The translations under genes and the position numbers were made by a program. From a virus, in the IMG/VR virus record IMGVR_UViG_3300032770_000009, positions 1 through 64,000 of that record: a stretch of 64,000 nt of DNA. One strand, given 5' to 3'. The stretch's first letter is position 1. Every line of letters begins with the position of its first letter. Shown here in pieces: positions 35,051 through 52,822 of the stretch. The notes under the pieces were generated by a model. It ran no database searches. It was not told where the DNA came from and saw only the letters and a list, made by a program, of their open reading frames with translations.

Positions 35051-35051
35051 G

Positions 35052-36624: not shown

Positions 36625-36627
36625 TTG

Positions 36628-36713: not shown

Positions 36714-36729
36714 ATATTTAATTGTTACG

Positions 36730-37046: not shown

Positions 37047-37092
37047 ATAAAGCGGAGACTGACGGAATTAACGATCAGCATCTCCGTTTAAG

Positions 37093-37167
37093 CGAGACCA
37101 ACGGGATTTGAACCCGTGACCACTACCTTGACAGGGTAGCGCTCTATCCGGACTGAGCTATGGCCCC
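37093..37167 (-). tRNA. tRNA-Asp(GTC)
   Basis: Cloverleaf; loop CT-GTC-AA. Confidence 0.92.
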
Positions 37168-37199
37168 ATGACTGCCTCAGAAGAGAGGCAGGTAAATCT

Positions 37200-37228
37200 A
37201 GTCTACACTATAATCGTGCGGATGTCAA
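37200..37228 (-). promoter_or_regulatory. Housekeeping-sigma promoter
   Basis: TTGACA-N17-TAGACT. Confidence 0.7.
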
Positions 37229-37229
37229 G

Positions 37230-37835
37230 CTACTTACCTGTAGCACTCGCCTTGAGAATATCAGGAGAACCTAGTAGCTGAACCTGGTGAGTGCTCTCGT
37301 TCCATGTAGCCGAACCAGAGACAGCATCCACGAAACCCTCCCAGTATTGGATGTACTGCTGACCCTTGCTATTGACACAAAGGACGTTAGTACCTGTAGA
37401 ATCACCAGTGTAAACGCCAGTTGGGTCCATCTGACCGATAACATTATCGCCTTGATTTTCCTGGTAACCGCCACCGTCAGGCTGTGCAACCTGCTGGTCA
37501 GGGTTAGTAAGCTGATCAGAAGATGCGACCGGCATACCGATAGAAGCACACGAAGAGATGGGATTCTGAATTCCTTGATTGAAGAAGAACGTTGTAGTGT
37601 TCTCTCCCTGGGCTTCGATGTCTTCAACATTCTGAAGAGTAGCGCGCTGCTGTGAATAGTTGTAGATATGAACAGGCTGGTTATTAAGTAGATTGTTACT
37701 GTCCTGCTGCTGTGCCTGGCTTTCTTGCTGCTGTGCACTAGGCGGCGTAGAAGCTGAGCTGTCAGAACTGCACCCAGTCATAAAAGCTGCCAGAAGAATC
37801 GCAGCCGATACCCCACCGACGATAAACTTGTTCAT
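37230..37835 (-). CDS. Lipoprotein
   Basis: Signal peptide with lipobox-like MTGC followed by a Ser/Gln linker. Confidence 0.7.
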   Translation of the reverse strand: MNKFIVGGVSAAILLAAFMTGCSSDSSASTPPSAQQQESQAQQQDSNNLLNNQPVHIYNYSQQRATLQNVEDIEAQGENTTTFFFNQGIQNPISSCASIGMPVASSDQLTNPDQQVAQPDGGGYQENQGDNVIGQMDPTGVYTGDSTGTNVLCVNSKGQQYIQYWEGFVDAVSGSATWNESTHQVQLLGSPDILKASATGK

Positions 37836-37858
37836 TTGTTTCCTCCTAGATTTTCTTC

Positions 37859-38380
37859 CTAATTGCCCATGTAGTAATACGTTGAGCTTGGGTTCAGACT
37901 ACCATCTGAACAATTTGTGTTGATCCACTTGGTATCGACGTTAGCGGCCGGAAGGGAACCGTTAACTTGAGTAGCCAGATAACAAACCTGACCGGCATCA
38001 TACTCGCGCTGGGACTTAAGCTGATTAGCATAAGTAGTGTCTCCCTGCTGCTGAGCAGAAATGATATCCGTAGAATCGCCATTGACACTCTGAATACCTG
38101 TAACAATTCGCTCACCTAGCGCGGACTGAAAGCTGAAAGACCCCTCAGCAATCTGACCTTCACCATTAGTGATTTGCTTCTGAATTTGTAGCTGGTGCTG
38201 AGTAACGCTCTTTGTTAGTGTCCACGATCCTTCGTAGATAGCGAAGATCCCGTAAACAATTGCGAAGACTACGATAACAGCAGCTACAAAGCCACCTAGA
38301 ATCTTCACCCTACCTCCTAGAGATTCTATAATTCTTTGCCACCGTGTCATATGTGGCGTTAACAAAATCGATCTGGTCAT
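37859..38380 (-). CDS. Membrane-anchored protein (true start probably near 38308)
   Basis: N-terminal hydrophobic helix; two Cys. Confidence 0.55.
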   Translation of the reverse strand: MTRSILLTPHMTRWQRIIESLGGRVKILGGFVAAVIVVFAIVYGIFAIYEGSWTLTKSVTQHQLQIQKQITNGEGQIAEGSFSFQSALGERIVTGIQSVNGDSTDIISAQQQGDTTYANQLKSQREYDAGQVCYLATQVNGSLPAANVDTKWINTNCSDGSLNPSSTYYYMGN

Positions 38381-38552
38381 CTGTATCAGCTTGTTCTAGC
38401 TGAACCATTCTGAGCATTTCAATTTCTTCCATCTTACGTTTCCAGGCTATCGGCGATAGTTTAGTCTTAGCCTGATATTTGAAGCAGTACCTTACGAAAG
38501 GCACGCCTACTGCCGTTGATATCAGCAGAGCAACCCCTAGTATTACTAGCAT
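38310..38552 (-). CDS. Small membrane protein
   Basis: N-terminal hydrophobic helix. Confidence 0.5.
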   Translation of the reverse strand: MLVILGVALLISTAVGVPFVRYCFKYQAKTKLSPIAWKRKMEEIEMLRMVQLEQADTDDQIDFVNATYDTVAKNYRISRR

Positions 38553-38607
38553 GTTAGACCCTTTAGTGTAGGGGGCGAGTTTCCCCGCCCCCTTGCTGTG
38601 TAACTAC

Positions 38608-38655
38608 AAACTACCAGACCCACGGGCATCTGTCAAATCCGGCAAACCGGACATT
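38608..38655 (-). promoter_or_regulatory. Promoter with upstream CGGACATT box
   Basis: TTGACA-N17-TAGTTT with TG extension. Confidence 0.65.
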
Positions 38656-40287
38656 CTAGACATCCCAGGGCCAACGACCATCTGAAGAATCTTCTATCAT
38701 TGGTATTAGTTTGAATGTAGCATCTGAAAGACCGCCAAGCTGGTACTTACGGTCCTTACCTACAGGAAGATCAGTAACTTTATAGCCTGCAAGATCGAAT
38801 GCATACACGTAAGCACTGCCAAAGTTGAAGTTAGCGACACCATAGCCATAGCCGTAGTAGCCATGGCCAGGGAAAGATTGTCCATCAGTGAAGATAAACA
38901 CTCTCTTGTGCTTATTCGGATCGAAGTGCTTCTGTAGTGCGTCTAGTGTTTGAGTACCATGTCCTACTTCACCGTTACGACGGTTAACTTCCTCCACTAT
39001 CTTAAGCACAGAAGTACCTGGCTTAACGGTTAGCTTCTTAGAAGAAGAAGCGAACATAACGATATCCACGTTACCTGGAGACTTAGCAGCCACAGCAGCA
39101 CCGAATAGAGCCGCTGCACCAGCACGTGACATCTTGCTCTTGTCAGATATAGGGGCATCCATTGAACCAGATGTGTCTACAAGCACCAAAGTTGAACTGT
39201 CGAACACCGGAATATTCTGAGTAGAATATTCTAGTGCCTGCTCAAGTGCCGCATGGTAGATAAGACTATTAGTCTCATTGAACGCAGAAAGGAATCTGAA
39301 CGGGAACTGTCTTGACTTCTCTATAACCTCCTTGTTGGTCAGTTTGTTGACAACAAGATCACGCACAGCAGTAGAAATACCTGCCTGCTCGAAATTGCGA
39401 AGGTTACGGATAAGAGCCATAATACCCATTGAAGGAATAACTGACTCCCACAACTTGTTCTTAGCCACTTTGGTACCGGCTAGAGAAAGAACATCTTCCC
39501 ATGTAAGACCAGCAGCCTTAACACGATCAGAGTCAAGAAGAGCCTTGACATCCTTAGCCGCATCAGCCCTCAATGACTGGTTAGCTGAAATCATAGGCAG
39601 CAAACTTGTGTCAGTATCAGAGCCATAACGCTTGCTGATTATAAACGAGAACAAAGCACCTTGCCATGGCTTAGAAGGCTTAACGTGAGTCAAATTCAAT
39701 ACATCAGAGAACTTAACTGAATATGCATCGGTGTTGTACTTAAGAACACTGTACTCGTTGTACAACTTAAGTACAGAATCAGAAATACCCCTCTTAACAG
39801 GCTTAGGTAGTTTACCAAACTTAGAAAGCCAGTAAGACACAAACTCGCCTGGTTCGTCAGCACGTGAAAGAACTTCAGAAATGATATGGCGATTCATGCC
39901 CTTCATGCCCATTGACGAAAGCAGCTCGTCTTCCGCTACAGCACCCTTGTTGTTAAGGCGAGCATACACAAAGTGAGCCGCACCTACTACAGACGCGGTA
40001 CGGATGTTAGCTTCTGATCTAAGCCAGATCAGAAACTTCATAGTCCATATAGGATCATAAACAGCTAGTGTCTCTACTAGATCGGTGAACCGCTTGTTAC
40101 GGTCATCACCCTTCTCATAGTAGGTCTTCTCACCGTAAAAGAGGTTTGCACCCAGACGGAAAAGCTCTGTCCTTTTGTCAGAAACAGCACCCTGACCGCC
40201 GCCGTAAGTACGAACACCCGGAACTACTGTTGAAGTCATTGGTGAGACTGGGCCACGGTTTACGGTCTTAGTGTTGATCTTTGACAT
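38656..40287 (-). CDS. rsr: Ro60/Rsr TROVE-domain RNA-binding protein with C-terminal vWA domain
   Basis: TROVE motifs RADEPGE, KLPKPVKRG, HVKP, LTWE, MGIMALIRNLRN, SRQFPFRFLSA; MIDAS motif DTSGSM and FTDGQ. SD GGAGG precedes ATG 40287. Confidence 0.93.
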   Translation of the reverse strand: MSKINTKTVNRGPVSPMTSTVVPGVRTYGGGQGAVSDKRTELFRLGANLFYGEKTYYEKGDDRNKRFTDLVETLAVYDPIWTMKFLIWLRSEANIRTASVVGAAHFVYARLNNKGAVAEDELLSSMGMKGMNRHIISEVLSRADEPGEFVSYWLSKFGKLPKPVKRGISDSVLKLYNEYSVLKYNTDAYSVKFSDVLNLTHVKPSKPWQGALFSFIISKRYGSDTDTSLLPMISANQSLRADAAKDVKALLDSDRVKAAGLTWEDVLSLAGTKVAKNKLWESVIPSMGIMALIRNLRNFEQAGISTAVRDLVVNKLTNKEVIEKSRQFPFRFLSAFNETNSLIYHAALEQALEYSTQNIPVFDSSTLVLVDTSGSMDAPISDKSKMSRAGAAALFGAAVAAKSPGNVDIVMFASSSKKLTVKPGTSVLKIVEEVNRRNGEVGHGTQTLDALQKHFDPNKHKRVFIFTDGQSFPGHGYYGYGYGVANFNFGSAYVYAFDLAGYKVTDLPVGKDRKYQLGGLSDATFKLIPMIEDSSDGRWPWDV

Positions 40288-40308
40288 TTTTACCTCCAAA
40301 AATATAAA

Positions 40309-40384
40309 GCCCCAAGTTTACATTCGCTTAATCATTTGTTGCAGTGGAAGAACACATGATTTCGATAGGTCGTAAACCTGGAGC
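40309..40384 (-). ncRNA. Long bulged hairpin RNA just upstream of the Ro60 ribosome-binding site
   Basis: GCUCCAGGUUUAC/GUAAACUUGGGGC 13-bp stem with G-U pairs, plus AAUCAU/AUGAUU inner stem. Confidence 0.5.
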
Positions 40385-40401
40385 GGTTTTTATAGAAACT
40401 G

Positions 40402-40531
40402 TTACCTTGAGAATAAGATTAAGTCAGCATTTGGGATTATGAGTCCCAGTTCCCGCCATGGGAACCCGGGATGTGGCCCCGGGTAATAGAGTCGAACTAT
40501 TGAAGTATCTGACTAAAATGCACCAAAGTAA
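40402..40531 (-). ncRNA. Y-RNA-like unit 1 (T arm, looped acceptor, D arm, anticodon CAU)
   Basis: Closing stems plus GGUGC and UACUUC motifs; T loop UUCGACU. Confidence 0.8.
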
Positions 40532-40540
40532 GTTTATAAA

Positions 40541-40649
40541 TCCTGAGAATAATACATAAACAGCAAGGGAGCCATCCCATACGGCAAGGAATCGAACCTT
40601 AGCCCTGCGAATTGTTGGAGCAGAAGTAGCTGTTTATTTTGCACCAGGA
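40541..40649 (-). ncRNA. Y-RNA-like unit 2
   Basis: UCCUG/CAGGA and AUAAACAGC/GCUGUUUAU stems; T loop UUCGAUU. Confidence 0.8.
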
Positions 40650-40662
40650 ATATGAAGTTGTG

Positions 40663-40811
40663 TTGCCTAGAGTATACTGCGGTCACAGTATAGTTTCGTA
40701 AAGCTCTACCATTAAGCTACACCGGGAAGAAGCCCCGGCGTCAGGATTCGAACCTGAATCTCTTGATTAACAGTCAAATTGAAGTAACTGTGTACCTTTG
40801 CACCTAGGCAA
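40663..40811 (-). ncRNA. Y-RNA-like unit 3 (permuted tRNA-Asn-like, anticodon GUU)
   Basis: Anticodon arm, T arm, looped acceptor and D arm in that order inside the conserved stems. Confidence 0.82.
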
Positions 40812-40817
40812 AGCTTA

Positions 40818-40980
40818 TTAATCCAGAGTTTAGGGCGACGACAGATGGCTTGTTATTTTATTTCGCGTCTTTCCAGTTAAACGACAGCCGCATGATTGAG
40901 CGGCCGACAGGATTCGAACCTGTATGACGGTCTCCGCATGACATATTTTGAAGTAACTGTAGTCTTTGCACCTGGATTAA
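40818..40980 (-). ncRNA. Y-RNA-like unit 4 (classical YrlA-like: T arm, looped acceptor, D arm)
   Basis: UUAAUCCAG/CUGGAUUAA closing stem; T loop UUCGAAU. Confidence 0.82.
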
Positions 40981-40987
40981 GTTGTGT

Positions 40988-41114
40988 AGTCAAGAGTAAG
41001 AAACGATCTCGGAGTTTGAATCTTCAACAGGACTTGAACCTGTAACATTTTCTTTTAAAGAGAAACTATCTGCCATTGATATATGAAGTAACCGAAATCA
41101 AACGCACCTTGACT
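40988..41114 (-). ncRNA. Y-RNA-like unit 5 (unpermuted cloverleaf, anticodon UUA)
   Basis: AGUCAAG/CUUGACU stem; D arm, UUUCU-CUUUAAA-AGAAA arm, T arm. Confidence 0.78.
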
Positions 41115-41117
41115 TAG

Positions 41118-41190
41118 AGGTCCATGCCGGATTCGAACCGGATAAAGTGAGGTTGCAACTCACCGCCTAAGCCTTTTCAGCCACAGGACC
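41118..41190 (-). tRNA. tRNA-Cys(GCA)
   Basis: Cloverleaf; loop TT-GCA-AC; U discriminator. Confidence 0.88.
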
Positions 41191-41195
41191 ATTAA

Positions 41196-41348
41196 ATTCC
41201 TAGAGATTGAGCACCTTACGGGTTAAAATATTTTATTTCACCATCAGCAGTTTAAGAGCTGCTGACTAGGATTTGAACCTAGAATCTCAAAATTGATAGT
41301 TTTGTGTGTTTACCTTTGAAGTAGCCGTTAGGTAGTGCACCTAGGAAT
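41196..41348 (-). ncRNA. Y-RNA-like unit 6 (opened in the D loop, anticodon AUC)
   Basis: AUUCCUAG/CUAGGAAU stem; CAAAA-CUAUCAA-UUUUG arm; T arm; UCAGCAG/CUGCUGA looped acceptor. Confidence 0.78.
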
Positions 41349-41387
41349 GTCCACAACACTAGGAGGTACAGTATGGTGGAATTTACT

Positions 41388-41519
41388 GTTCAGAGAATAA
41401 GTTAGACTCAGTGACGATTTCAACCTCCACACCCGCGTGTGGCGCTCTCTAGCTTGAGCTATAACGCAAGGACTTAACCTTTGCTGCATTAGAAGTAACT
41501 GTGTCTTTTGCACCTGAAC
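41388..41519 (-). ncRNA. Y-RNA-like unit 7 (degenerate tRNA-like cargo)
   Basis: GUUCAG/CUGAAC stem, conserved motifs, D-arm-like UAGCUC..GAGC. Confidence 0.72.
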
Positions 41520-41522
41520 TAG

Positions 41523-41595
41523 TAGTGATAACTGGATTTGAACCAGTGACCGGCAGGATATGAATCTGCTGCTCTACCAACTGAGCTATACCACT
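41523..41595 (-). tRNA. tRNA-Met or Ile2 (CAT)
   Basis: Cloverleaf; loop TT-CAT-AT. Confidence 0.8.
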
Positions 41596-41635
41596 AGGTG
41601 TGGGACTTGCACCCACTAGTTATCCCAACTCTGTA

Positions 41636-41717
41636 AATCTGGAGTATAAATCGGCTACTGTGTCTTTTGGATAACTATAGCGTTGTTTGAAGTATCAGTG
41701 ACCTTCGCACCCAGATT
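41636..41717 (-). ncRNA. Y-RNA-like unit 8 (minimal)
   Basis: AAUCUGG/CCAGAUU stem; GGUGCGAAG and UACUUC motifs. Confidence 0.72.
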
Positions 41718-41725
41718 AAGATTAC

Positions 41726-41820
41726 TGTTCTAGAATATATAACGCATCACGGTCGGTTTCTACCATGGTGGCTTAAAAGGCTACTGTTTGAAGTAACCGT
41801 AATGCTTTGCACCTAGAACA
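41726..41820 (-). ncRNA. Y-RNA-like unit 9 (minimal, Lys-like CUUUUAA loop)
   Basis: UGUUCUAG/CUAGAACA stem; conserved motifs. Confidence 0.75.
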
Positions 41821-41823
41821 TAG

Positions 41824-41899
41824 ACGCGGGAGTGAGATTCGAACTCACGTAGAACGGCTTATGAGACCGTGCTGGAACCGAACTCCAGTCTATCCCGCA
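41824..41899 (-). tRNA. tRNA-Met(CAT)
   Basis: Cloverleaf; loop CT-CAT-AA. Confidence 0.85.
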
Positions 41900-41908
41900 G
41901 TGTTTAAA

Positions 41909-41990
41909 ACTCAGAGAATAATTTGAAAACAGCGCATTTACAGACCAATGTGAATAGTGTTTGAAGTAACTGTCTTCTTTGCACCTGAGT
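41909..41990 (-). ncRNA. Y-RNA-like unit 10 (minimal)
   Basis: ACUCAG/CUGAGU stem; conserved motifs. Confidence 0.75.
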
Positions 41991-41998
41991 AGTATTTT

Positions 41999-42056
41999 GG
42001 AATTAACTGGGATCTGATGTGCCGCTTAAGGGATGGGTTGTGCCACTGTTAATTCC
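41999..42056 (-). ncRNA. Conserved structured RNA motif of about 60 nt, copy 2, 3' of tRNA-Glu
   Basis: GGAAUUAAC/GUUAAUUCC stem; core shared with 36563-36624. Confidence 0.55.
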
Positions 42057-42059
42057 TTG

Positions 42060-42130
42060 TAGCCCTACAGGGACTCGAACCCTGTTTACAAGATTGAAAG
42101 TCTTGTTTCCTACCTATAGAAGATAGGGCC
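42060..42130 (-). tRNA. tRNA-Glu(TTC)
   Basis: Cloverleaf; loop CT-TTC-AA. Confidence 0.88.
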
Positions 42131-42197
42131 ACGATCAGCAAGACTGCTGTGTCACTTAGCTAGCTTCGTTTCGTGTCTCTGCCTTGCTGATGTAACC

Positions 42198-42246
42198 ATC
42201 CTACCAGACCCGCGCCCCTTTGTCAAATCGGGGCGAATCGGACATT
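42198..42246 (-). promoter_or_regulatory. Promoter pointing into the tRNA / Y-RNA / Ro60 unit, with CGGACATT box
   Basis: TTGACA-N17-TAGGAT. Confidence 0.72.
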
Positions 42247-42403
42247 TCGGGCTACTCTCGAAGCTCTGCTAACTTATCGTGAGCTTCTTTAAAATCATTT
42301 GTGATTAACTCAACTTCAGCAGTAACAGGAACATCTTCCGAATCATCAGTGATTTCCACTTTACCGAATCTATCAGTGTAGACGTAATAAGTCATTGTAC
42401 ACC

Positions 42404-43417
42404 CTAATTAATAAGAAGAAGAGAAGTGCCGCCGATAAGTTTACGGTTCAAAGCAGTAGACTGCACAAAGATAGTATAGTTAGCGTACTGTGTACTAGAT
42501 GGATCTACATCTACTGTGTGATCAGGCAGGCCAAGCAACTGCCTAGCTTGAGGACCAGTGTAGATCTTCCCCCCGAAACCAATAGCGATATTCTTTTGCG
42601 GCTGAATTGTTTCCTTCTTAGTAAGTTGATAGTAAGCTTTACCGATAATAAGCTTCCTTCCAGTGTGGTCGTAGACGAATTCGTCTACTCTCTGGTCAAA
42701 AGGCACCGCTATAAGCTGGTGTGTTCCTGGTGACAAAGCATTAAGAGACAACTTAATGTCCGACTCTGTTACCCTATTAAGACTAAACAGGTTCTTACTG
42801 CTTCTGATACCCATAGACCTGTTAGTCATAAAGGTAGTAGAAGCTTGACGAACAATATGTCCTACTGTTTCAAGTCCCTTAGCAGATGTTGTATCCCAGA
42901 TTATTACGTTTTCTTTAGGGAATCCGTACTTTACAGCATAGTTAACACCTGTCTGGTTAGGTACGAAACAAGCATAAGACCAGTTTCCCTTGCCGTCAAG
43001 GACAGAAAAGTTTGACTTTAGAGTCAATGCACTGTGTGAAGAACTGTTTTCGTCACCATCAGTAATCACGTACATTAGGAAAGCGTGCTCACCGTATAGT
43101 GTAGCGGTCTTATCAAGGTCTTCCATTGCCTTAATGGTGGCGTCAATAAGAGCTGTACCACCAGAAGCACGGTACATTCCCTTAATAGACTGCATTCTCA
43201 GCACATCCATATCGTATGCAAGGCACTTGATATGATTGTATCCGGAAGAGAATGTGTATACAGTAACTCTTGTTTCCTGTTCCTGAGCTATAGATTGCTC
43301 AGCTAAGTGCTTTACTGTGTCATCTACTACACTAACTACAGTATTTGTTAAGTAATTCATGCTGCCTGATGCGTCTATAACTAAGACAACATGGTTAATA
43401 AAGTTTTTAAGTGCCAA
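42404..43417 (-). CDS. vWA-domain protein
   Basis: MIDAS motifs LVIDASGSM, GGTALIDA, VITDGDENSS. Confidence 0.85.
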   Translation of the reverse strand: MALKNFINHVVLVIDASGSMNYLTNTVVSVVDDTVKHLAEQSIAQEQETRVTVYTFSSGYNHIKCLAYDMDVLRMQSIKGMYRASGGTALIDATIKAMEDLDKTATLYGEHAFLMYVITDGDENSSSHSALTLKSNFSVLDGKGNWSYACFVPNQTGVNYAVKYGFPKENVIIWDTTSAKGLETVGHIVRQASTTFMTNRSMGIRSSKNLFSLNRVTESDIKLSLNALSPGTHQLIAVPFDQRVDEFVYDHTGRKLIIGKAYYQLTKKETIQPQKNIAIGFGGKIYTGPQARQLLGLPDHTVDVDPSSTQYANYTIFVQSTALNRKLIGGTSLLLIN

Positions 43418-43637
43418 AATACCCTCCTAGATAGTGAAAATAGGGTCTAAATGACCCTATTTTCAGTTAAATATAGACAAAAACGGTCAGTTAGTCAAAC
43501 GTGCCGCCTGTATTTGTTACTTCTGTAGCTGAAACAAGCTTCTGAGAAGTCCAGCCTAGTGCCCAGCCTTCATTAGCAACAGGAACACCCCATAAAAAGT
43601 ACATGTTATTCTGCTCATGTGCTGAAATTTGCATAAT

Positions 43638-44213
43638 TTAACCAACGTTTGTAGAAGCAATAATCAAAAGTGCGTTCATTGTTACATAGAAACGCATCTG
43701 AGGGTTAGGATAAGCAACTGTAACACCGTTTGTGTTGTAGTTTCCGCCCTGAGAAGTCCAGCCAGGAACGTTAGCGTGACTTAATGTCGCGTTATCGTAG
43801 CCTAATGGGTATACGCCATCATCAGATGTGCCCAAAGCAGCATTAAGTACGATCTGGAAACCCGCATAACCAACCGCGTTAGCATACTCATTGTAAGAAA
43901 CAGAGTTAGAATAGTTAGAAGCAAGCTCCTGTAGTGACTGCCCGTTAGCTGAAACTTGAGTAATAGACACAAGAGTAGGCAAAATCACCGTTGAACCAGT
44001 AGAACCGCCACCTGTACCGTTGTCAGAGAAGAAAATCCTTGACGGATTAACGCCTTGCTGGTCTAAAATACCGGCTACATAAACTGTAGAGCCTGGTGTG
44101 TACACGCCGTTAGTGAAAGAATAAGTTGCAGCATCGGTTGGAGTACCCGCGCTACGTTGAAATGTAGTGTTAATAACAGGAAACCCTGCTAGATTTGCTA
44201 CTGAAAGAGCCAT
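43638..44213 (-). CDS. Hypothetical protein, paralog of 45943-46314
   Basis: Shared TNGV..Y(V/I)AG.LD...FF.D...LPTL..QVS motifs. Confidence 0.6.
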   Translation of the reverse strand: MALSVANLAGFPVINTTFQRSAGTPTDAATYSFTNGVYTPGSTVYVAGILDQQGVNPSRIFFSDNGTGGGSTGSTVILPTLVSITQVSANGQSLQELASNYSNSVSYNEYANAVGYAGFQIVLNAALGTSDDGVYPLGYDNATLSHANVPGWTSQGGNYNTNGVTVAYPNPQMRFYVTMNALLIIASTNVG

Positions 44214-44259
44214 GTTAACTCCCTAATGGAATAATATTACTCTCACAGTATACACTAAG

Positions 44260-44331
44260 AGCGAATGACGAGACTCGAACTCGCAGTCATAGCTTGGAAG
44301 GCTATTGGTTTAACCGTTAACCAACATTCGC
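44260..44331 (-). tRNA. tRNA-Gly(TCC)
   Basis: Cloverleaf; loop CT-TCC-AA. Confidence 0.88.
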
Positions 44332-44332
44332 A

Positions 44333-44417
44333 TGGTGCCCCCACTCAGATTCGAACTGAGACGCAATAAAGCACGGGGTTTAAATCCGTTGGATAGACCT
44401 GATTCTCCTATAGGGGC
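44333..44417 (-). tRNA. tRNA-Leu(TAA), CCA encoded
   Basis: Loop TT-TAA-AC; variable arm. Confidence 0.8.
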
Positions 44418-44440
44418 TTTAGAGAAACAGAGTAACGCAC

Positions 44441-44815
44441 CTATTTCATTGTTTCATCCGACTGAATGTCGGAAGTTTTGTCTAGCCTCGGCACTTTGAA
44501 GGCCAGAATACCTTCCCTAACCATAGCATCTACTACGTCTTGCCTGTCATCATAGAAAATATGAAGGTCAAGTGCCTTAGCTTGTGCCACCTTAAGGGCT
44601 GGTGCCTCTCTTGGATGCCTGAAAGCAACCTCATACACACCATCAACATAAGGTGTGTATGAAAGCACCTGCTCCATTATGGTACCCTTACGCCTCGGTC
44701 CAATAGCAGAGATGACATATACTTTGTCACCGTAAGAAATATGACGTCGCATAAGATTAACTATCTGATTAGGCCATGCGTCTAGAACATTATGGTAGTC
44801 GAATCCTACTCTCAC
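44441..44815 (-). CDS. HAD-like protein
   Basis: VGFDYHNVLD...ISA...K...FYDDR. Confidence 0.6.
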   Translation of the reverse strand: MRVGFDYHNVLDAWPNQIVNLMRRHISYGDKVYVISAIGPRRKGTIMEQVLSYTPYVDGVYEVAFRHPREAPALKVAQAKALDLHIFYDDRQDVVDAMVREGILAFKVPRLDKTSDIQSDETMK

Positions 44816-45001
44816 TTAATGGTCCCTCCTATGTGCGGGTACAGGACAGTGACGAATATGATTACTGCACGCAAGTTCGTCACAGTGAATTTTCAGTATA
44901 CCTACTTTAGCGTGGTCACACTTTGTACTTGTGCAAACCGGATCGCCTTTTCTGTGCTTACCCCGCACGGCCATTATCCTTTTTCCTCCTATTTGATTAC
45001 G

Positions 45002-45074
45002 TGCCCGTCCTGGGATTTGAACCCAGACTGTATAAGGTTTGAGCTTATTATCTCTACCGTTGGAATAGGCGGGC
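45002..45074 (-). tRNA. tRNA-Leu(CAA), short variable loop
   Basis: Loop CT-CAA-AC. Confidence 0.82.
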
Positions 45075-45197
45075 TTACGTGAGAGAAAAGAGCATTTATA
45101 GGCTATCTTCAGCTCTTACTCTGCTAGTATTTCTCAGACAGCCCGCGAATACTATGCAATAGCCTCTCACTGAGCACAGTTAGCAAGACTGTACTTG

Positions 45198-45269
45198 TGG
45201 TTCAGTCTGGAATCGAACCAGCGCCCATTGCTTTTCAGGCAATCGCTCTACCGACTAAGCTACAGAACC
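45198..45269 (-). tRNA. tRNA-Phe(GAA)
   Basis: Loop CT-GAA-AA. Confidence 0.9.
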
Positions 45270-45276
45270 ATTTTTT

Positions 45277-45420
45277 CTAATACCACTGGTGACTATCATT
45301 GTTAGTGCAAACATGCTCTTGCAACATAGCATGTCCTCTTGTCAGATCACATGACCCGTCACATCGTGGACATTTTGCAGGACAAGGGTCTTTGCCTCTG
45401 TAAACTATATTAAGTCCCAT
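45277..45420 (-). CDS. Cys/His microprotein (CxxxCPxCxxxC...H...HxC...HxW family)
   Basis: MGLNIVYRGKDPCPAKCPRCDGSCDLTRGHAMLQEHVCTNNDSHQWY; SD AAGGAGG. Confidence 0.7.
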   Translation of the reverse strand: MGLNIVYRGKDPCPAKCPRCDGSCDLTRGHAMLQEHVCTNNDSHQWY

Positions 45421-45442
45421 TTAATCCTCCTTATCATAACAG

Positions 45443-45525
45443 TACCCCGCAAGGGATTTGAACCCTCACACCGTCACCGATACTAGATCCTAAGTCTAGC
45501 GCGTCTGCCATTCCGCCAACGGGGC
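45443..45525 (-). tRNA. tRNA-Leu(TAG)
   Basis: Loop CT-TAG-GA; variable arm. Confidence 0.92.
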
Positions 45526-45731
45526 ATTGTGGCCGTATTTGACAGGTTCGGCTTCCTGATTTACGGTTTTGCTTCCGCTCTCCCCGTACTAGCCTCATAC
45601 GGATTATCAAGTTTATCAGAACAGTGATTATCTCAGCAAGTCTCCTAGACAAATTTGTACTTGCGCCAGACTATACTTCGCGTTTGCCACATTGCTGTAT
45701 AGCCGAACTGTCCTGTTCCTGTAGCACTACG

Positions 45732-45811
45732 TGGGCCGCCTAGGGATCGAACCTAGCATGTCAAAGACGGCAGGGTTACAGCCTGCTTTCCCACCTTGGG
45801 AATTCCGACCC
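45732..45811 (-). tRNA. tRNA-Tyr(GTA)
   Basis: Loop CT-GTA-AC; variable arm; atypical D arm. Confidence 0.82.
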
Positions 45812-45888
45812 AAAACCTAGGCAATCCGGAGAAAACCTAGGAGTAATCTTAGATGACGACGTTACCGCCGCCCTGAGTTGATATTTAA

Positions 45889-45927
45889 AGCCTACCAGAC
45901 CCAACGTCCGATGTCAAATCGGACATT
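45889..45927 (-). promoter_or_regulatory. Promoter with CGGACATT box
   Basis: TTGACA-N17-TAGGCT. Confidence 0.7.
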
Positions 45928-45942
45928 CAGGACAAACCGGGA

Positions 45943-46314
45943 TTAACCGTAAGCTGTACCAGCAGTGATAAGCAAGCCGAATTCATCAAGATAAATCTGA
46001 GAATTGGCCGAAGTAGCGTCTGGAGAACCAGCAGAATAAGACAAAGTAACATAGTAAGCACCAGTCTTAGTGTTTCCTGCTGAATCAACAACACTTACCT
46101 GCTGTACTTGTGTCAGTGTCGGTAACGCTATGGATGTTCCGTCAGTGTAAAAGAACTTAGCTCTGTTCTCGCCGTCAAGATAACCGGCAATATAAGCACC
46201 CGCGTGTGTTGTAGAAACACCGTTAGTGTAAGTAAAGCTCGATGCGTCAACGTTAGTAGCTCCGCCCCACGCAGGGTAGCCACCTAAATTGTAAACTGAT
46301 AAACCTGCTGACAT
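45943..46314 (-). CDS. Hypothetical protein, paralog of 43638-44213
   Basis: Shared motifs and shared upstream element. Confidence 0.6.
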   Translation of the reverse strand: MSAGLSVYNLGGYPAWGGATNVDASSFTYTNGVSTTHAGAYIAGYLDGENRAKFFYTDGTSIALPTLTQVQQVSVVDSAGNTKTGAYYVTLSYSAGSPDATSANSQIYLDEFGLLITAGTAYG

Positions 46315-46361
46315 ATTAGCAGCCTCTCATGAGAGAAATAATATTACAATGACAGTATACA

Positions 46362-46823
46362 CTAGGCTAGCAAGTAGTTCTCCGCTTGCTGTATATGAGA
46401 TCTTTGCAGTCCGTCAACATAATCAACAATTACCTGGTACCCGTTACTTTCGTACAAGTGATGCTGAAAGTCCCATTCGTCTTCTAGAGCTGCAAACTTG
46501 CGCCCATCAGCATATTTCTTTGCTGAGTAAGCCTTGTCTGCACCGACAGACGATGAAAACTTCCAAGGTTTCACCTGTATAAAGGGCAGTTCGGGCAATC
46601 CGACTTTTGGTGCTATATGTACTGGCGCTTGTGCACCCCACATAGTACACCATACAAGTTCAGAATCGGTTTTATCGGCTAGATCTAGCAGCCATGATCC
46701 GTGATTAGGATTCAAATGGACAGTAAAACCATTTATTTCGTATGTTACATGGTCTTTAGACGGACGGACGGGGTTAAGCACCCCGTCCACGTCTATCAGT
46801 ATCAAGTTACTTTTGATGGACAT
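46362..46823 (-). CDS. HAD-family phosphatase (RNA-repair-associated type)
   Basis: LIDVDGVLNP...ELVWCTMW...LGLPELP...ALEDE. Confidence 0.75.
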   Translation of the reverse strand: MSIKSNLILIDVDGVLNPVRPSKDHVTYEINGFTVHLNPNHGSWLLDLADKTDSELVWCTMWGAQAPVHIAPKVGLPELPFIQVKPWKFSSSVGADKAYSAKKYADGRKFAALEDEWDFQHHLYESNGYQVIVDYVDGLQRSHIQQAENYLLA

Positions 46824-47120
46824 AGTAGCCACCGTCAGCCCTGCGAGCACTCTTCGCCTTGCCACCGGAGTCTAGGAATTGCTGGTATTGTCTAGCAGTC
46901 ATGAATACTTCTCCAGAATGATCATGTCCCACATCGATAGGCTTACCGTGATTCTCAGCTTTGCCATTGCAGCCTTGCTTAATATGATCAATCTCTATAG
47001 GAAGACCACAGCATCCCCATGTTTTTCCAGACTTCTTCTTAAGACCGGCCGCCAAAGCCATTGCAGCCCTGAAAGCTGACTTGCTGATAGCCATTGTTTC
47101 CTCCTTGTTTGTTTGTGCTA

Positions 47121-47198
47121 TGGTCTAGATAGAGGGATTCGAACCCCCGTTATGCCTGACCCCAAATCAGGTGCCATACCAAGCTAGGCGATATCTAG
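47121..47198 (-). tRNA. tRNA-Pro(TGG), CCA encoded
   Basis: Loop TT-TGG-GG. Confidence 0.88.
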
Positions 47199-47201
47199 AA
47201 A

Positions 47202-47273
47202 CCGGGAGGTTCTTCCATTAAACTACCATACCCATGAATAGTGGATATGACCGGAGTCGAACCGGATTCCCCG
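47202..47273 (-). ncRNA. Free-standing circularly permuted tRNA-like element with no anticodon loop
   Basis: Order is T arm, looped acceptor, D arm; the two ends pair as an anticodon stem. Confidence 0.7.
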
Positions 47274-47275
47274 TG

Positions 47276-47348
47276 TGGACAGTAAGGGATTCGAACCCTT
47301 ATTCGCTTGCTTGCAAAGCAAGTGCCTTACCAGTCGTGCCAACCGCCC
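47276..47348 (-). tRNA. tRNA-Ala(TGC)
   Basis: Loop TT-TGC-AA; G3-U70 pair. Confidence 0.88.
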
Positions 47349-47728
47349 ATTGTGCCGCTTACGCGGCGGTACTACTAGAAAACCATGTCGATAAACGCAT
47401 CGAATTCTGCGTCTAGGATATCCTGCTGTGCTCTTTGCATTTCATAAGCAGCAGCACGGCGATTACCCATAGCCAGATCCATCTGTGCTCTTTGCTGAGC
47501 CATCTGAGCATCTTCCAGATCCATAATTTCATCGAACTCAATAAAATCCATTAGTCCTCCTAAAACTTGTTACCGTAGTCTGATGGCATTACAATCCAGT
47601 TTCCGCCATCCCAGTATCTTACTACACCATCCATGTCAACCCATTGCTCATACGTATAAGGGTTATCTGGCGGATCTTGTGTTCTTATTGATTTATTCAC
47701 GTTGGGCGACTGGGACTTGAACCCAGGA

Positions 47729-47956
47729 CTATGAAGCAGTAGACATCTTTACGATATAAATTCCCATAGCAACAGCAGCAAAGAAAGATACTGTGCCCAA
47801 AGCTGGGTACTTCTTTATAAGAGCATGGGAACCTGCTATTGCAAGATAAGTCCCTGTAACCATAACAACAGCAGCTTGTTCCTCTGGTGTCATTGCTGAT
47901 ACTACATTTTCATAGTCTTGCATACTAGAGAAGCCCATAAATTCTGTTTCATTCAT
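47729..47956 (-). CDS. Small membrane protein with two predicted helices, inside the insertion
   Basis: Two hydrophobic segments; SD GGAG. Confidence 0.55.
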   Translation of the reverse strand: MNETEFMGFSSMQDYENVVSAMTPEEQAAVVMVTGTYLAIAGSHALIKKYPALGTVSFFAAVAMGIYIVKMSTAS

Positions 47957-47987
47957 TTAATTCTCCGAATCTGTAAAATTGTTAAAG

Positions 47988-48061
47988 TTGGGATAGAAGG
48001 AATTGAACCTTCTCAAAGTGTTTATAAGACACTTTCCGTCAAACCGTTCGGACCTACCCCA
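47988..48061 (-). tRNA. tRNA-Ile(TAT)
   Basis: AGTGT-CT-TAT-AA-ACACT arm; T loop TTCAATT. Confidence 0.82.
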
Positions 48062-48456
48062 ATGCTAAGAATCTCGTAATCCTCAGCCCAGTTGATATTG
48101 GGAGAAGCTTTGAAAGGATTTTTGACTCTTAAACGCATACTACCTGCTGGTGCGTCATCAACTGGAATCCAGTATACCTTGTTTAAGTCAGGCGAGTACA
48201 CGGCAAACAAATCAGCTTCACCTTTGTAACCCTTGTGGACATTTGTGAAAGGACTAATGCTAACAGTGTTGAATACAACACAGCCGTTATCAATTCTGCC
48301 AGTTTTGACTTGGATTCGTGTGAAGTTATTGTTTTCTTCAACAACCATATCATATCGCTGGTTGTCTCCAAACGGCAGCAGAACTGTTTTTCCCTGCTTG
48401 ATTAGCTCGGCTAAGACAACAGCTTCACTTATTTCTCCGACTGCTTTGCTATTCAC
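48022..48456 (-). CDS. PD-(D/E)xK homing-type endonuclease
   Basis: GEISE...PFGDNQRYDMV...RIQVKTG...ADLFAVY motif pattern. Confidence 0.85.
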   Translation of the reverse strand: MNSKAVGEISEAVVLAELIKQGKTVLLPFGDNQRYDMVVEENNNFTRIQVKTGRIDNGCVVFNTVSISPFTNVHKGYKGEADLFAVYSPDLNKVYWIPVDDAPAGSMRLRVKNPFKASPNINWAEDYEILSIGVGPNGLTESVL

Positions 48457-48822
48457 TAATCTCCTTGTGCTGCTCTAACCGACTGAACTACCGCCCAATG
48501 ATTACTAAGATTCTTTTTCTGCTTTCTCGACAAGAATCTTAGCAGCGGCAAGCGCGGCCAATTCTGTCTTAGTAAGAGTCTTAGGATCTCTCTTTTCAAG
48601 TTCTTTAATCACCTTAAGAGCCCTTGCAAGAGCATCTTCCACTACAGTCCACCTACTTTCCATCCACGGTTAGGTACAGTATCTACAGGTTCACTAACCC
48701 ACAATACATCCCATAATACAGCAGGTGCATGCTTTAAAGTTACCCTGTCACCTATTTTAACATCTTTATCAACCCAGCATGTAAGATGGGTGTCGTGTGC
48801 TTTTAACTTGACTTGTATCATG

Positions 48823-48895
48823 TGAGTCCCGTGGGATTTGAACCCACAACTCCCAACTTAAAAGGATGGTACTCTGCCAATTGAGTTAGAGACTC
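48823..48895 (-). tRNA. tRNA-Lys(TTT)
   Basis: Loop CT-TTT-AA. Confidence 0.88.
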
Positions 48896-49218
48896 ATTTT
48901 CCCTGAGCCGTACTGATTTTTCCAACCTCGAATAGCCAACTGCTCAAGGTTATCGGCTTTCGATTTCTGAGTATGATGAACTGCGCATAGAAGTTGGCAC
49001 TTTTCAAGTTCAGCTAGAAATCTTACTTTAGCTATAGACCACATTTTGTTGACAGGAACCTCTTTGTAAACCCAGTCTATGTGGTCTATTTGCAAGTTTT
49101 CCGTTGTTTCACATATCGCACACACTCCACCTAGCAGTTTTTTAGCAAGAGCCATTCGCTCCGCATAGCGTCTTTGCATGTATGTATTCATGTAATTGTT
49201 ATAGTCTTTAGAAGGCAT
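48886..49218 (-). CDS. HNH endonuclease
   Basis: LGGVCAIC...LQIDHID...ELEKCQLLCAVHHTQK. Confidence 0.85.
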   Translation of the reverse strand: MPSKDYNNYMNTYMQRRYAERMALAKKLLGGVCAICETTENLQIDHIDWVYKEVPVNKMWSIAKVRFLAELEKCQLLCAVHHTQKSKADNLEQLAIRGWKNQYGSGKMSL

Positions 49219-49483
49219 ATTTAGTTGTTTTTCTTTTTTGGCTGCATATGTTCTGGAGCAGGTTTCTTACACAAAGAACATCTAAGGACGCCTGTCACTC
49301 TGTCTTTAATATAAAAATGTTTACCATTCTGGCAATTACTGTTACCCATACTACTTCACTTTTTTCCAAATGTCAACTAGAAGATTAACGCAGGCTATAA
49401 TAGCTATTCCTGTACCTAGTCCGCTACCAAAAAATACCTCAAATCCGTGTTCCCAACCCATCTGTCCCTCCTAATATAGAAAG

Positions 49484-49556
49484 TACCCTGAGAGGGATTC
49501 GAACCCCCGACCTTATGCTTAGAAGACATTAGCTCTATCCACTGAGCTATCAGGGC
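49484..49556 (-). tRNA. tRNA-Arg(TCT)
   Basis: Loop CT-TCT-AA. Confidence 0.9.
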
Positions 49557-49769
49557 TTGGTTTAGCAACGACACTATTAAGCCGCCGTATGCTAAACGGT
49601 ATACGCATGTTTACAGGCTGCAGTCCTAATATCTAGAATTTTGCTGTCAGAACCTCAAGTCCAATAAGTCATGCCTGACTTTATGCTCCGCACCGTCAAG
49701 GACTCAAGACGGTGCAACCTTCTATATACAGAAGACCTTTCATCCGGATTTCATATCTGTACGGGAGCG

Positions 49770-49842
49770 CGCCCTGACCTGGACTCGAACCAGGGACCGT
49801 CACTTTAGGAAAGTGTTATTCTATCCTCTGAACTACCAGGGC
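49770..49842 (-). tRNA. tRNA-Arg(CCT)
   Basis: Loop TT-CCT-AA. Confidence 0.88.
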
Positions 49843-50070
49843 GTAAAACTATTTTTCCTTCTGCTCTTTCTCTAGCTTAACTACTTCCCTTGTACGACGA
49901 AGCACTTCAGCCTTAAGCTTTTTAACCATAGCATAACTATCCGGGTTTCCGCCATTGCGGTCTTTGATTAGTTGTATAGCCTCAGCCAAATCGGATTCAG
50001 CATCCGCTAGAAGCATCTTAGCCAAACCTAGAGTATCAGCCATTCTTTCCTCCATCTCTTGTTTTCTATG

Positions 50071-50144
50071 TTGGGGAAGAGGGACTTGAACCCTCGGTCT
50101 TTTCCTTATCAGAGAAACGATTTCACCAGCTAATCTACTCCCCA
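50071..50144 (-). tRNA. tRNA-Ile(GAT)
   Basis: Loop CT-GAT-AA. Confidence 0.88.
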
Positions 50145-50153
50145 TTGTTACTG

Positions 50154-50215
50154 TGGAGTCAAGAGATTTGAACTCTCCACCCATAGTGGCCAATTACGGG
50201 TTACACCATTACCCC
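50154..50215 (-). ncRNA. tRNA-like element lacking a D arm
   Basis: Acceptor GGGGTAA/TGACTCC, T loop TTCAAAT, CCCGTA/TATGGG arm, no D stem. Confidence 0.55.
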
Positions 50216-50217
50216 AG

Positions 50218-50289
50218 TACACCCAGAGGGAGTCGAACCCCCATTCCTAGATCCGTAGTCTAGTGCCCTGTCCATTGAACGATGGGTGC
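50218..50289 (-). tRNA. tRNA-Arg(ACG)
   Basis: Loop CT-ACG-GA. Confidence 0.9.
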
Positions 50290-50370
50290 ATGTACTAAAT
50301 TTGACGAATGAGACTTTACTTATCAGTGTATTCTATGATTCTCTTGTACGGGCTTTAGTACGTGCCCTTG

Positions 50371-50442
50371 GGCGAACATCGAGAATTGAACTCGAATATT
50401 TGGTTCCACAGACCAATGTTCTACCATTGAACTATATCCGCC
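50371..50442 (-). tRNA. tRNA-His(GTG)
   Basis: Loop CT-GTG-GA; G-1:C73 pair. Confidence 0.9.
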
Positions 50443-50568
50443 ATGGGTCACGCAATTTTATGCTTCTTGCGTGGAACAGCTTCTGTATTTACAGCTACAG
50501 ATCAGCAGGAGCCCTTTTGTTCCGACATCTTGTAAAGCGCGCCCGGAACGGGTAATGCTCATACCTAG

Positions 50569-50639
50569 CAGGGCGACAGGGACTCGAACCCCAAACTGCG
50601 GTTTTGGAGACCGCTGTTTTACCATTAAACTATCTCCCC
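50569..50639 (-). tRNA. tRNA-Trp(CCA)
   Basis: Loop CT-CCA-AA. Confidence 0.88.
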
Positions 50640-50783
50640 AAGTGAGAAACGCACTTACCTATGCGCAGAATTAACGCCGCCTTCCCCATCCGGCATTATT
50701 GCGTTAAGCATAACCACCCATGCGATAGCCGCCGATATCGCCCTAGAACCCTCAGCGCATCTCTCTTTGTTGTTATGTCTAAT

Positions 50784-50812
50784 ACCCTACCACACGTCCG
50801 GCCCTTTGTCAA
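50784..50812 (-). promoter_or_regulatory. Housekeeping-sigma promoter
   Basis: TTGACA-N17-TAGGGT. Confidence 0.68.
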
Positions 50813-51541
50813 ATCAAGTGACTGAGACAAAAATCCGCGTATCGTCACCCTTCGGGCGAACCACCGTACCCTGGGGCAAATCGGACATTCGGGACGTAAC
50901 TAGTTTTCCAGACGTCCCTCGAAGATCCATCTCATGCATGTGATAGCGTTTGCAGAAACATTCATCCCAGTCAGATCCACCGGGGAGGTAAGCCTTGCAC
51001 TCAGGATCGTGCTTAGCATTAAAAGCATTAACCGTTTTGTCAGCCTCTTGTTTATCAAGAGTAGTCATAATACACTGATGGTAACTATCCCACGGAACTT
51101 CAGCGCATACTACGTAGCAGATCACTTAAGGAATGTTTCTATCTTGCCGCGCTTCATGAATTTTTCCATGTCAACTTCACCAAGTACGTTGGCTTCTATA
51201 AGTTCAACCTTGACATCGTATTTTCTTGGCTCATCGAACCCCGCGTAAACATATGTCTGCACAGCCATTTGCAAACCACCATAACGCACTCTTGGCTTGC
51301 TTGCCCATCTAAACCTAGGGTTTATCTCTGTTCTCGTAACCCTGAACAGATGACGCTTATTGTTATCGTACATTAATCCTCCTGATTGAGCCATTCAAAG
51401 TCAGCTTCGCTAAGCTGGCCGCCAGTAGACGGTGATACATATATTTTAGGATGGCGCGGCCTGTACTGACAACGATACACCCATATACCAAACACTTCAG
51501 CATGTACCATAGGTACACCACAGCATTCAAATGTCATTACG

Positions 51542-51612
51542 CTTCCCCCCAAAGATTCGAACTTCGATTCATGGTTCCAAAGACCACTGTCCTGCCATTA
51601 GACGAAGGGGAA
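51542..51612 (-). tRNA. tRNA-Gln(TTG)
   Basis: Loop CT-TTG-GA. Confidence 0.88.
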
Positions 51613-51617
51613 TAGAG

Positions 51618-51690
51618 CTTCCGCCCCAAGATTCGAACTTGGAACCACATGGTTCAGAGCCATGTACTCTGCCAGTTGAGCTAGACGGAA
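51618..51690 (-). tRNA. tRNA-Gln(CTG)
   Basis: Loop CT-CTG-AA. Confidence 0.88.
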
Positions 51691-52381
51691 ATATGCCGCT
51701 TACGCGGCTGTTGTATTTAACTCGATAATACCATTTATGTCAAGTGCTTCAGTTTGAACAGCTAGCATCTGACTATTTTTCATGTAGCGCTTCTGCCTGT
51801 CCTGAGCTTCCTGGCGTTTACGTGCCTTTTCTGCTTGCATAACACCTTTGTTAGGACCATATTTACGTGGCGGTCCTTGCGGGCCTGTGAATTTATACCA
51901 CTTATCCAAAACTCTTCTCCCACCATTCGGCGAATACAGGACCGTTGAACTTCAGAACATGGCGAAGCTTGTTACGCTTGCGGTGACCCTCAGCATTATA
52001 ACGCATATGCGACGGCTTCTTGCGCTTATTACCTGTTTTGCTATGTGCCATCATACCCCCTTAAGCTTCGCTGTGGTCGTACGTAACTCCCTTATTAGCA
52101 CATTTAACACAAATATGTAGATTAGCTTGTGCGTCACTCATAAGTTTGTTAAATCTCATTTTATATTCGCAGTGCTTGCACCTGTAAACGTATGTCACTT
52201 TCCCTCCAGCCACAACTTCCAGAAATCGTCGAGAAGTTGCTTCTTTATGTCTTCTGCCATTTCTTCCGCTAGATTCCATTCCTCTATAGGAATGCTATGT
52301 TTCACACGAAATTCTTCGGCATGGCGTTTAGCATCTTCTAGAGCTTTAGCCTCAGCTTTAGCATCCATTTTCCTCCTGTCG

Positions 52382-52454
52382 AGCCAGATATCGGATTTGA
52401 ACCGATGACCGCATTCTTACCATGAATGTGCTCTACCGACTGAGCTAATCCGGC
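52382..52454 (-). tRNA. tRNA-Thr(GGT)
   Basis: Loop AT-GGT-AA. Confidence 0.9.
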
Positions 52455-52545
52455 TTGTGGCGTCAGTAGAAATGCTAGTTTAAAGCGCTACTATATCTAG
52501 TATTTCTTGGGGCTGCTGTCGGCCGCACCAGTTATTCCCCTTTAG

Positions 52546-52619
52546 AGCCACCTAACGGATTCGAACCGTTGACCTGCTCATTACAAGTGAGCTGCTCTGG
52601 CCATCTGAGCTAAGGGGGC
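52546..52619 (-). tRNA. tRNA-Thr(TGT)
   Basis: Loop CT-TGT-AA. Confidence 0.92.
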
Positions 52620-52749
52620 GTATTTCTAATTGTCCTTACGGTACAAGTAAGTTGTAGTACGACAAGCAGGGCATTCTTTCCTGATAACTTTGTCAGTGTA
52701 CTTAAGTTCTGATATTTCTTCGCAAAGAAGACATTTGTATTTATTCACG

Positions 52750-52822
52750 CTCTCACATCAGGACTCGAACCTGAAACCTATCGGTTAACAGCCGAACGCT
52801 CTGCCAATTGAGCTATGCGAGA
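52750..52822 (-). tRNA. tRNA-Asn(GTT)
   Basis: Loop CT-GTT-AA. Confidence 0.92.

Follow-up and report, generated by a model that had tools for sequence, protein, structure and literature searches.

The question raised by this locus is what fills the short interval between two tRNA genes of a phage. The phage is of the myovirus type (tail sheath, SPP1-like portal and large terminase) and is represented by a 116,568-nt virus record from a wetland metagenome, the first 64,000 nt of which form the stretch of DNA analyzed here (the window). ARAGORN finds 33 tRNA genes in the phage. They lie within 34977-52822, every one on the minus strand, and together cover all 20 amino acids. Two of these, tRNA-Ala(tgc) and tRNA-Pro(tgg), are separated by 77 nt counted from the Ala discriminator to Pro +1. 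The initial annotation placed within this gap a circularly permuted tRNA body lacking the handle of a Y RNA, fitting exactly between its neighbors. Neither ARAGORN nor the Rfam tRNA model (RF00005) calls a canonical tRNA there, and there is no anticodon loop.

Read on the minus strand, the element spans 47203-47273. It is a 71-nt, tRNA-shaped sequence that is permuted and has no anticodon. Its parts run 5' to 3' as closing stem, variable loop (3 nt), T arm, acceptor closed by a hairpin loop, U8-A9, D arm and the second strand of the closing stem (Table 1). There are 22 base pairs, 18 Watson-Crick and 4 G-U, and no mismatch in any helix; the closing stem contributes five of them (four G-C and one G-U). 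The bases of the elbow and core are all in place, namely U8, A14, A15, G18-G19, U54-A58 and G53-C61, and the U just 5' of the T stem faces A15, a possible Levitt pair. The register chosen by ARAGORN gives an acceptor of 8 bp and a further U(-1)-A73 pair; these 8 bp and the 4-bp T stem make the canonical 12-bp stack. The element is real and well formed, and the sequence bears out the anatomy originally proposed, with every pair intact. The range first given, 47202-47273, does contain it, but includes one surplus G. The fit between the two tRNAs also holds, because the 77-nt gap consists of CA, the element and GUUU, leaving 2 nt on the Ala side and 4 on the Pro side.

Table 1. Positions of the element, its parts and other features of the window
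Feature	Position	Strand	Details
tRNA-Ala(tgc), upstream neighbor	47275/6-47348	-	ARAGORN, Rfam tRNA
Closing stem, 5' strand	47269-47273	-	counterpart of anticodon-stem positions 39-43; pairs with 47203-47207
T arm	47251-47265	-	4-bp stem, 7-nt loop UUCGACU (U54, U55, C56, A58, G53-C61)
Acceptor-stem analogue	47226-47250	-	9-bp hairpin, 7-nt loop; pair probabilities 0.61-0.99
U8-A9 linker and D arm	47209-47225	-	4-bp stem; 7-nt loop with A14, A15, G18, G19, A21
Closing stem, 3' strand	47203-47207	-	equivalent to positions 27-31; one base (position 26) stands before it
tRNA-Pro(tgg), downstream neighbor	47121-47198	-	CCA encoded; ARAGORN, Rfam tRNA
Ro60 orthologue	38656-40299	-	547 aa; Pfam TROVE E 1.2e-20, VWA_2 E 6.7e-8
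Y-RNA-like array	40380-41990	-	about nine genes with 5' motif, 4 tRNAs interleaved; directly upstream of Ro60 gene
tRNA with UUA anticodon	41018-41090	-	within the array; ARAGORN; Rfam tRNA 50.8 bits
vWA-protein ORF	42404-43417	-	in tRNA region
HAD-domain ORF	46362-46865	-	340 nt downstream of element
Orphan tRNA 3' piece	47681-47726	-	T arm and acceptor 3' strand, no 5' partner
75-aa ORF	47729-47956		stop directly followed by the orphan piece
PD-(D/E)XK_5 endonuclease ORF	48022-48456	-	in tRNA region
Degenerate tRNA-like element	50145-50216	-	72-nt gap between tRNA-Arg(acg) and tRNA-Ile(gat)
tRNA-Gln(ctg)/tRNA-Gln(ttg) junction	51589-51642	-	R1 29.4 bits; 6 of 7 acceptor pairs

We used a covariance model, R1, of the core formed by T arm, acceptor hairpin and D arm. 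Its training set consisted of 7 Y-RNA heads from the phage itself and four relatives (G000-G005) and did not include the candidate. R1 matches the element at 47209-47266 with 38.9 bits (E = 5.2e-9 on a rough calibration), which ranks third in the window behind two of the training sequences. Junctions between tandem tRNAs also score with R1 because they provide a T arm followed by a D arm. The best of these in the window has 34.4 bits, 4.5 below the element, and in other phages they reach up to 46 bits. The element is set apart from junctions in that its neighbors are complete, and its acceptor hairpin and closing stem lie wholly within the gap.

Circularization was imitated in silico by doubling the native fragment head to tail and applying ARAGORN at lowered thresholds. 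A cloverleaf was returned for five of six end choices, of undetermined type in the program's output and with no anticodon call. Taken alone, the closing stem has moderate significance, about 0.1 by our own estimate given the registers that our scanner permits. The nearest-neighbor energy of the cloverleaf is -19.0 kcal/mol, 2 kcal/mol higher than the minimum free energy (MFE) of -21.0 kcal/mol. The T stem and D stem have pair probabilities of 0.10 and 0.03, so the ensemble does not favor either, and the fold z-score is -0.62. Low nearest-neighbor support is common among unmodified tRNA sequences, and such values are not positive evidence.

The Y-RNA array that the initial annotation placed some 5 kb away is present, with about nine units that end at the TROVE/Ro60 gene and lie 5-7 kb from the element. 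Its 5' motif (GGUGCA, 6-20 nt, YACUUC) is found in 8 copies and one variant on the minus strand, and in none on the plus strand. Six units were folded, giving MFE structures with long terminal stems. The full head of T arm, acceptor hairpin and D arm is present in two units only, at ~40972 and ~40804, while the rest have a T arm alone or no tRNA part. One head-bearing unit matches positions 24-84 of Rfam YrlA with 26.9 bits, and no unit of the array reaches the gathering score of 69. The array is unusually large. The tRNAs interleaved with it are two tRNA-Met, one tRNA-Cys and one with a UUA anticodon, which would read the UAA stop codon.

The handle motif is absent at the element, the nearest of the 8 copies being at 41985. 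Because complete tRNAs lie only 2 and 4 nt away, there is no space for a Ro60-binding handle. We considered a hidden handle spanning the neighboring tRNAs and rejected it, there being no handle motif nearby. The element had also been proposed as a building block of the array. The design of the head is indeed common to both, but the T and D stems differ, and paralogy beyond the design is conjectural. Among other ORFs of the tRNA region are one with a HAD domain of the kind found in 'Swiss army knife' RNA-repair proteins, a PD-(D/E)XK_5 endonuclease and a vWA protein (Table 1).

The closest known relatives in design are the YrlA RNAs (RF02553) of Salmonella, M. smegmatis and mycobacteriophages. 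Their heads are proven tRNA mimics, by a crystal structure and by modification by TruB and DusA (PMC4201824, 10.1101/312249), and in the account of Wang et al. 2018 (10.1101/312249) they are tRNAs in circularly permuted form whose acceptor stem is closed. Like these, the element has the order T arm, loop-closed acceptor and D arm, its ends enter through the position of the anticodon stem, the same elbow and Levitt-type contacts are possible, and there is a Ro60 gene on the same strand of the same genome. Unlike YrlA it has no Ro60-binding terminal stem, no 5' motif and no V arm, and it lies 6.9 kb from the Ro60 ORF rather than within ~4 kb. Its T and D stem sequences are also unlike those of the array heads, whereas the treatment of YrlAs in Wang et al. 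(10.1101/312249) stresses their conserved T and D stems. Rfam YrlA (gathering score 69 bits) gives no match at the element at E <= 10. This miss is not discriminating, because the phage's own Ro60-linked heads reach only the sub-threshold score given above. The M. smegmatis YrlA differs further in that its Ro60 handle is kept and Rsr binding has been shown; a Ro60/Rsr-binding motif GNCGAAN0-1G is given in Chen et al. 2014 (PMC4201824). The element therefore belongs to the YrlA kind by design, and not by the defining handle of the family.

Further systems share some of these features. Two-piece tmRNA (RF04321/RF01851) likewise has a T arm, acceptor 3' strand, spacer and acceptor 5' strand in that order, with an alanine-type G3-U70 and A73. 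The Rfam permuted tmRNA and cyano_tmRNA models match 47227-47266 with 20.4 and 18.8 bits against gathering scores of 47 and 70, and these sub-threshold matches cover only the T arm and acceptor hairpin. Unlike two-piece tmRNA, the element has a full D arm but neither a tag reading frame nor pseudoknots, and it does not encode CCA. The tRNA cluster of phage T4 includes stable non-tRNA RNAs whose ends are made by tRNA-processing enzymes. The RNase P-released RNAs of the mascRNA type, as mentioned in 10.1101/312249, are similarly small and structured, with ends made by tRNA enzymes. Unlike the element, both mascRNA-type and T4-cluster RNAs are not permuted and have a free acceptor end.

Heads of this design were sought in other phages. 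Our own scanner for complete permuted cloverleaves gave 13 matches on both strands of 1.59 Mb of phage DNA, and the flanks of these resemble tRNA or Y-RNA surroundings, judged by eye and in part against tRNA calls. Four pattern scans and one R1 search of whole records extended the survey to ~2.6 Mb of phage loci with many tRNA arrays. The pattern scans gave at least 118 loci in each of two, together with 11 viral-contig loci and 4 genome-contig loci; the matches listed are mostly tRNA dimers, plus Y-RNA heads that bear a handle. Among the best 30 loci of the R1 search, made on 40 whole phage records, the strict scanner recognizes two complete heads, both seen before and neither with tRNAs on both sides. 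In all, the scanner finds about 25 other complete permuted heads in the ~2.6 Mb. Many have a GUUACUUC-like motif just upstream. Of five that were folded with their flanks, four sit within a longer terminal stem and the fifth folds differently. Where the distance was computed, the nearest tRNA is at least 22-37 nt away. Given the longer terminal stems and distant tRNAs elsewhere, the missing handle of the element is a real difference. No second handle-less head was found in the ~2.6 Mb, and only the candidate adjoins tRNAs on both sides. We found no literature description of handle-less heads in phage tRNA arrays; the supplementary tables of Chen et al. 2014 may list phage cases. A bacterial head with T and D arms near-identical to the search pattern occurs on a contig of Actinoplanes sp. 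(L331, 348-394, plus strand), and is probably a chromosomal or prophage YrlA.

Unable to decode, and lacking the handle by which Ro60 would tether it, the element is most likely a free tRNA-body mimic of the YrlA type that is released by processing of its tRNA neighbors. We hold this reading tentatively, with a probability of roughly 45%. The element would be transcribed as part of the minus-strand tRNA operon; co-transcription with the neighbors is suggested because no promoter- or terminator-like site was found near the element on the minus strand. Its 5' end would be made by 3'-end processing of tRNA-Ala, leaving CA, and its 3' end by RNase P cutting at +1 of tRNA-Pro, leaving a GUUU tail. 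We infer this release from the geometry of the locus and from the known activities of RNase P and 3'-end processing. The freed RNA is predicted to take up an L-shape in which the tRNA elbow is intact and the two ends pair as a 5-bp remnant of the anticodon stem. It may then occupy or titrate a factor that recognizes the tRNA elbow or acceptor arm; candidates would be the effector of YrlA heads, a tRNA-processing or tRNA-modifying enzyme, or a host defense nuclease directed at tRNA. The cloverleaf with its 12-bp stack, the R1 score, and the Ro60 gene and head-bearing Y RNAs in the same genome weigh for such a mimic. Against it weigh the failure to find a second copy, the Rfam YrlA miss, stems unlike those of the array heads, the 3-nt variable loop and 4-bp T stem, the weak ensemble support for the T and D stems, the nearby tRNA debris and the 4.5-bit margin over the best junction.

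The lack of further copies points to the next most probable explanation, a young evolutionary leftover that has no function of its own. The initial annotation had called for a search of related phages, and this went against conservation. The terminase led to relatives at 14 loci (50-77% identity) and a conserved ORF of 123 aa to relatives at 7 loci, and tRNA order is syntenic among the phage and these relatives. Five related lineages keep the adjacency of tRNA-Ala(tgc) and tRNA-Pro(tgg), and none has a T arm or R1 match in the gap, which measures 64 nt in G001, 101 nt in G004, 235 nt in G002, 183 nt in L055/L056 and ~125 nt in L053/L054, where ARAGORN misses the Ala gene. The fillers of these gaps are mutually unrelated, and other spacers turn over equally fast and completely. 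None of the relatives from the TerL and orf123 alignments carries the element, and the HAD_SAK and orf123 proteins used as single queries gave no relatives among viral contigs. Megablast with a 1.6-kb query gave no match in phages. Blastn with 301 nt and 77 nt returned only the flanking tRNAs or chance stretches, and no homologue turned up among 50,697 phage records. An exact 22-mer of the element has no match in IMG/VR viral contigs. The element is spanned by its source assembly only, with no variants there, while a second run does not extend over it, and by these searches it is a singleton. Without a homologue, a covariation test is impossible.

Two of these gaps, in G004 (L016 1404-1504) and G002 (L017 ~1700-1819), both on the minus strand, contain another kind of candidate small RNA, without a T loop or an Rfam match. 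Its terminal stem, GGRCGU ... ACGYCC, runs on into GCCA and so resembles an acceptor end that encodes CCA. In the more distant G005, a Y-RNA-like gene with a head occupies a 191-nt gap on the 5' side of tRNA-Pro(tgg), which is a lead for the ancestry of the element and nothing more.

Such a leftover could be the junction of two tandem copies of one tRNA that lost their outer halves, or a Y RNA that lost its handle. In favor of a leftover, the acceptor 3' strand continues with A and then C. The same is true of 31 of the 33 phage tRNA genes, in which the discriminator is followed by C and then by unrelated bases with no full CCA; CCA is encoded only in Pro-tgg and Leu-taa. In this light the loop of the hairpin resembles the usual spacer between two tRNAs. 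A permuted head is already mimicked by the tandem tRNA-Gln junction, a live example of how heads could arise from tRNA dimers; a dimeric-tRNA origin of YrlA is a published model, set out in 10.1101/312249. The debris nearby is also in keeping with a leftover. One case is the orphan 3' piece that follows the 75-aa ORF, which looks like tRNA debris or an attachment-site-like remnant. The other is the degenerate element between tRNA-Arg and tRNA-Ile, whose T arm is good and whose acceptor pairs over 6 bp, but which lacks a D stem and has an unusual anticodon arm; in relatives this gap has unrelated hairpins. Yet unlike these two the element has all its pairs and elbow bases intact, and as a leftover would be so only because it is young. 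Moreover, two deletions would both need to have stopped exactly at the base of the anticodon stem, and no parent was found among the 176 tRNAs of G000-G005, where the best combined half-scores are 47 of 128 (median 30). On balance we regard a leftover as somewhat unlikely, while taking it seriously.

A reading with clearly less in its favor makes the closed acceptor a precursor. RNase P would cut before G1 and a 3' enzyme after A73, the 8-nt loop would be removed and CCA added, giving a two-piece, anticodon-less body that could be charged by AlaRS. The outer end of the acceptor is of the alanine type (G1-C72, G2-C71, G3-U70, A73 and C74, with U at -1), and stands 12 bp from the T loop. It is textbook knowledge that AlaRS charges anticodon-less minihelices with G3-U70. 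The CCA-addition pathway must be active, because 31 of the 33 phage tRNAs need it; no Pfam match to a CCA-adding enzyme was found in the phage, so that it relies on that of the host. There is also a precedent in the M. smegmatis YrlA, which has a 7-bp acceptor and is described as an RNase P substrate in vitro that in vivo is cleaved and receives a CCA tail (PMC4201824). Against this, RNase P may be kept from cutting by the -1:73 pair and by the shortness of the 7-nt loop, and most YrlA acceptor stems are reported to be poor substrates for the enzyme in the account of 10.1101/312249. Chance alone will not rarely place a G-U at one particular position in a stem of 9 bp, and this one was noticed only afterwards. 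We know of no role for an RNA of this kind, and we consider that this reading is probably wrong.

It is a little less probable still that the element is a designed look-alike of an anticodon-cleaved tRNA-Ala, chargeable by AlaRS and carrying the full alanine identity set. The identity bases G3-U70 and A73 are present in the register of the 12-bp stack, and the acceptor end is closed. If this improbable reading were true, the RNA could interact with EF-Tu, with factors of RNA repair or with host sensors that detect tRNA damage.

The order of the parts is also that of true circularly permuted tRNA genes, in which the ends are ligated and the acceptor loop opened to give a decoding tRNA. Such genes, reportedly described by Soma in 2007, Maruyama in 2010 and Chan in 2011, occur in red and green algae and in Thermofilum. 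Like the element they have the 3' half first and an acceptor closed by a loop, their termini pair as the anticodon stem, and the resemblance to algal and archaeal permuted genes is drawn in 10.1101/312249; ARAGORN moreover accepts the circularized fragment, as noted above. The algal and Thermofilum genes, however, carry anticodon-loop bases and a splicing motif and mature into decoding tRNAs, whereas the element has 6 loop bases. Joining its native ends thus gives a 6-nt loop and does not restore a 7-nt anticodon loop with U33 and a purine at 37, in line with the missing anticodon call. No Pfam match to RtcB or RNA_ligase (Rnl2) was found in the 116.6-kb genome; the scope of this search is RtcB and Rnl2-type ligases, since the controls for PF09511 (the T4 Rnl1 family) were silent. 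The phage's own tRNAs already serve all 20 amino acids, and no bacterial splicing endonuclease is known according to the discussion in 10.1101/312249. The circularization raised in the initial annotation thus finds no support, and a decoding tRNA from this locus is very improbable.

Finally, that the element is a chance look-alike or a scoring artefact of tRNA-dimer junctions is hardly credible even in view of the R1 scores that junctions attain, because the neighbors are complete and do not overlap it, and all nine pairs of the acceptor hairpin and all five of the closing stem fall inside the gap.

The preferred reading, a free mimic of the tRNA body, bears on how Y RNAs work. Y RNAs are thought to tether Ro60 to an effector through the tRNA-like head. 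What is new is a single genome that combines a handle-less head with Ro60 and a full Y-RNA array. A phage with Ro60, about nine handle-bearing Y RNAs and a handle-less head would amount to a case in which nature has separated the two modules. A free head, provided that it is stable, could serve as bait for the factor that binds such heads, and it would show that a phage can profit from mimicry of the tRNA body without Ro60. The element agrees with a published view in which junctions between tRNAs give rise to YrlA heads and, if it should instead be a young leftover, it would show the birth of such heads.
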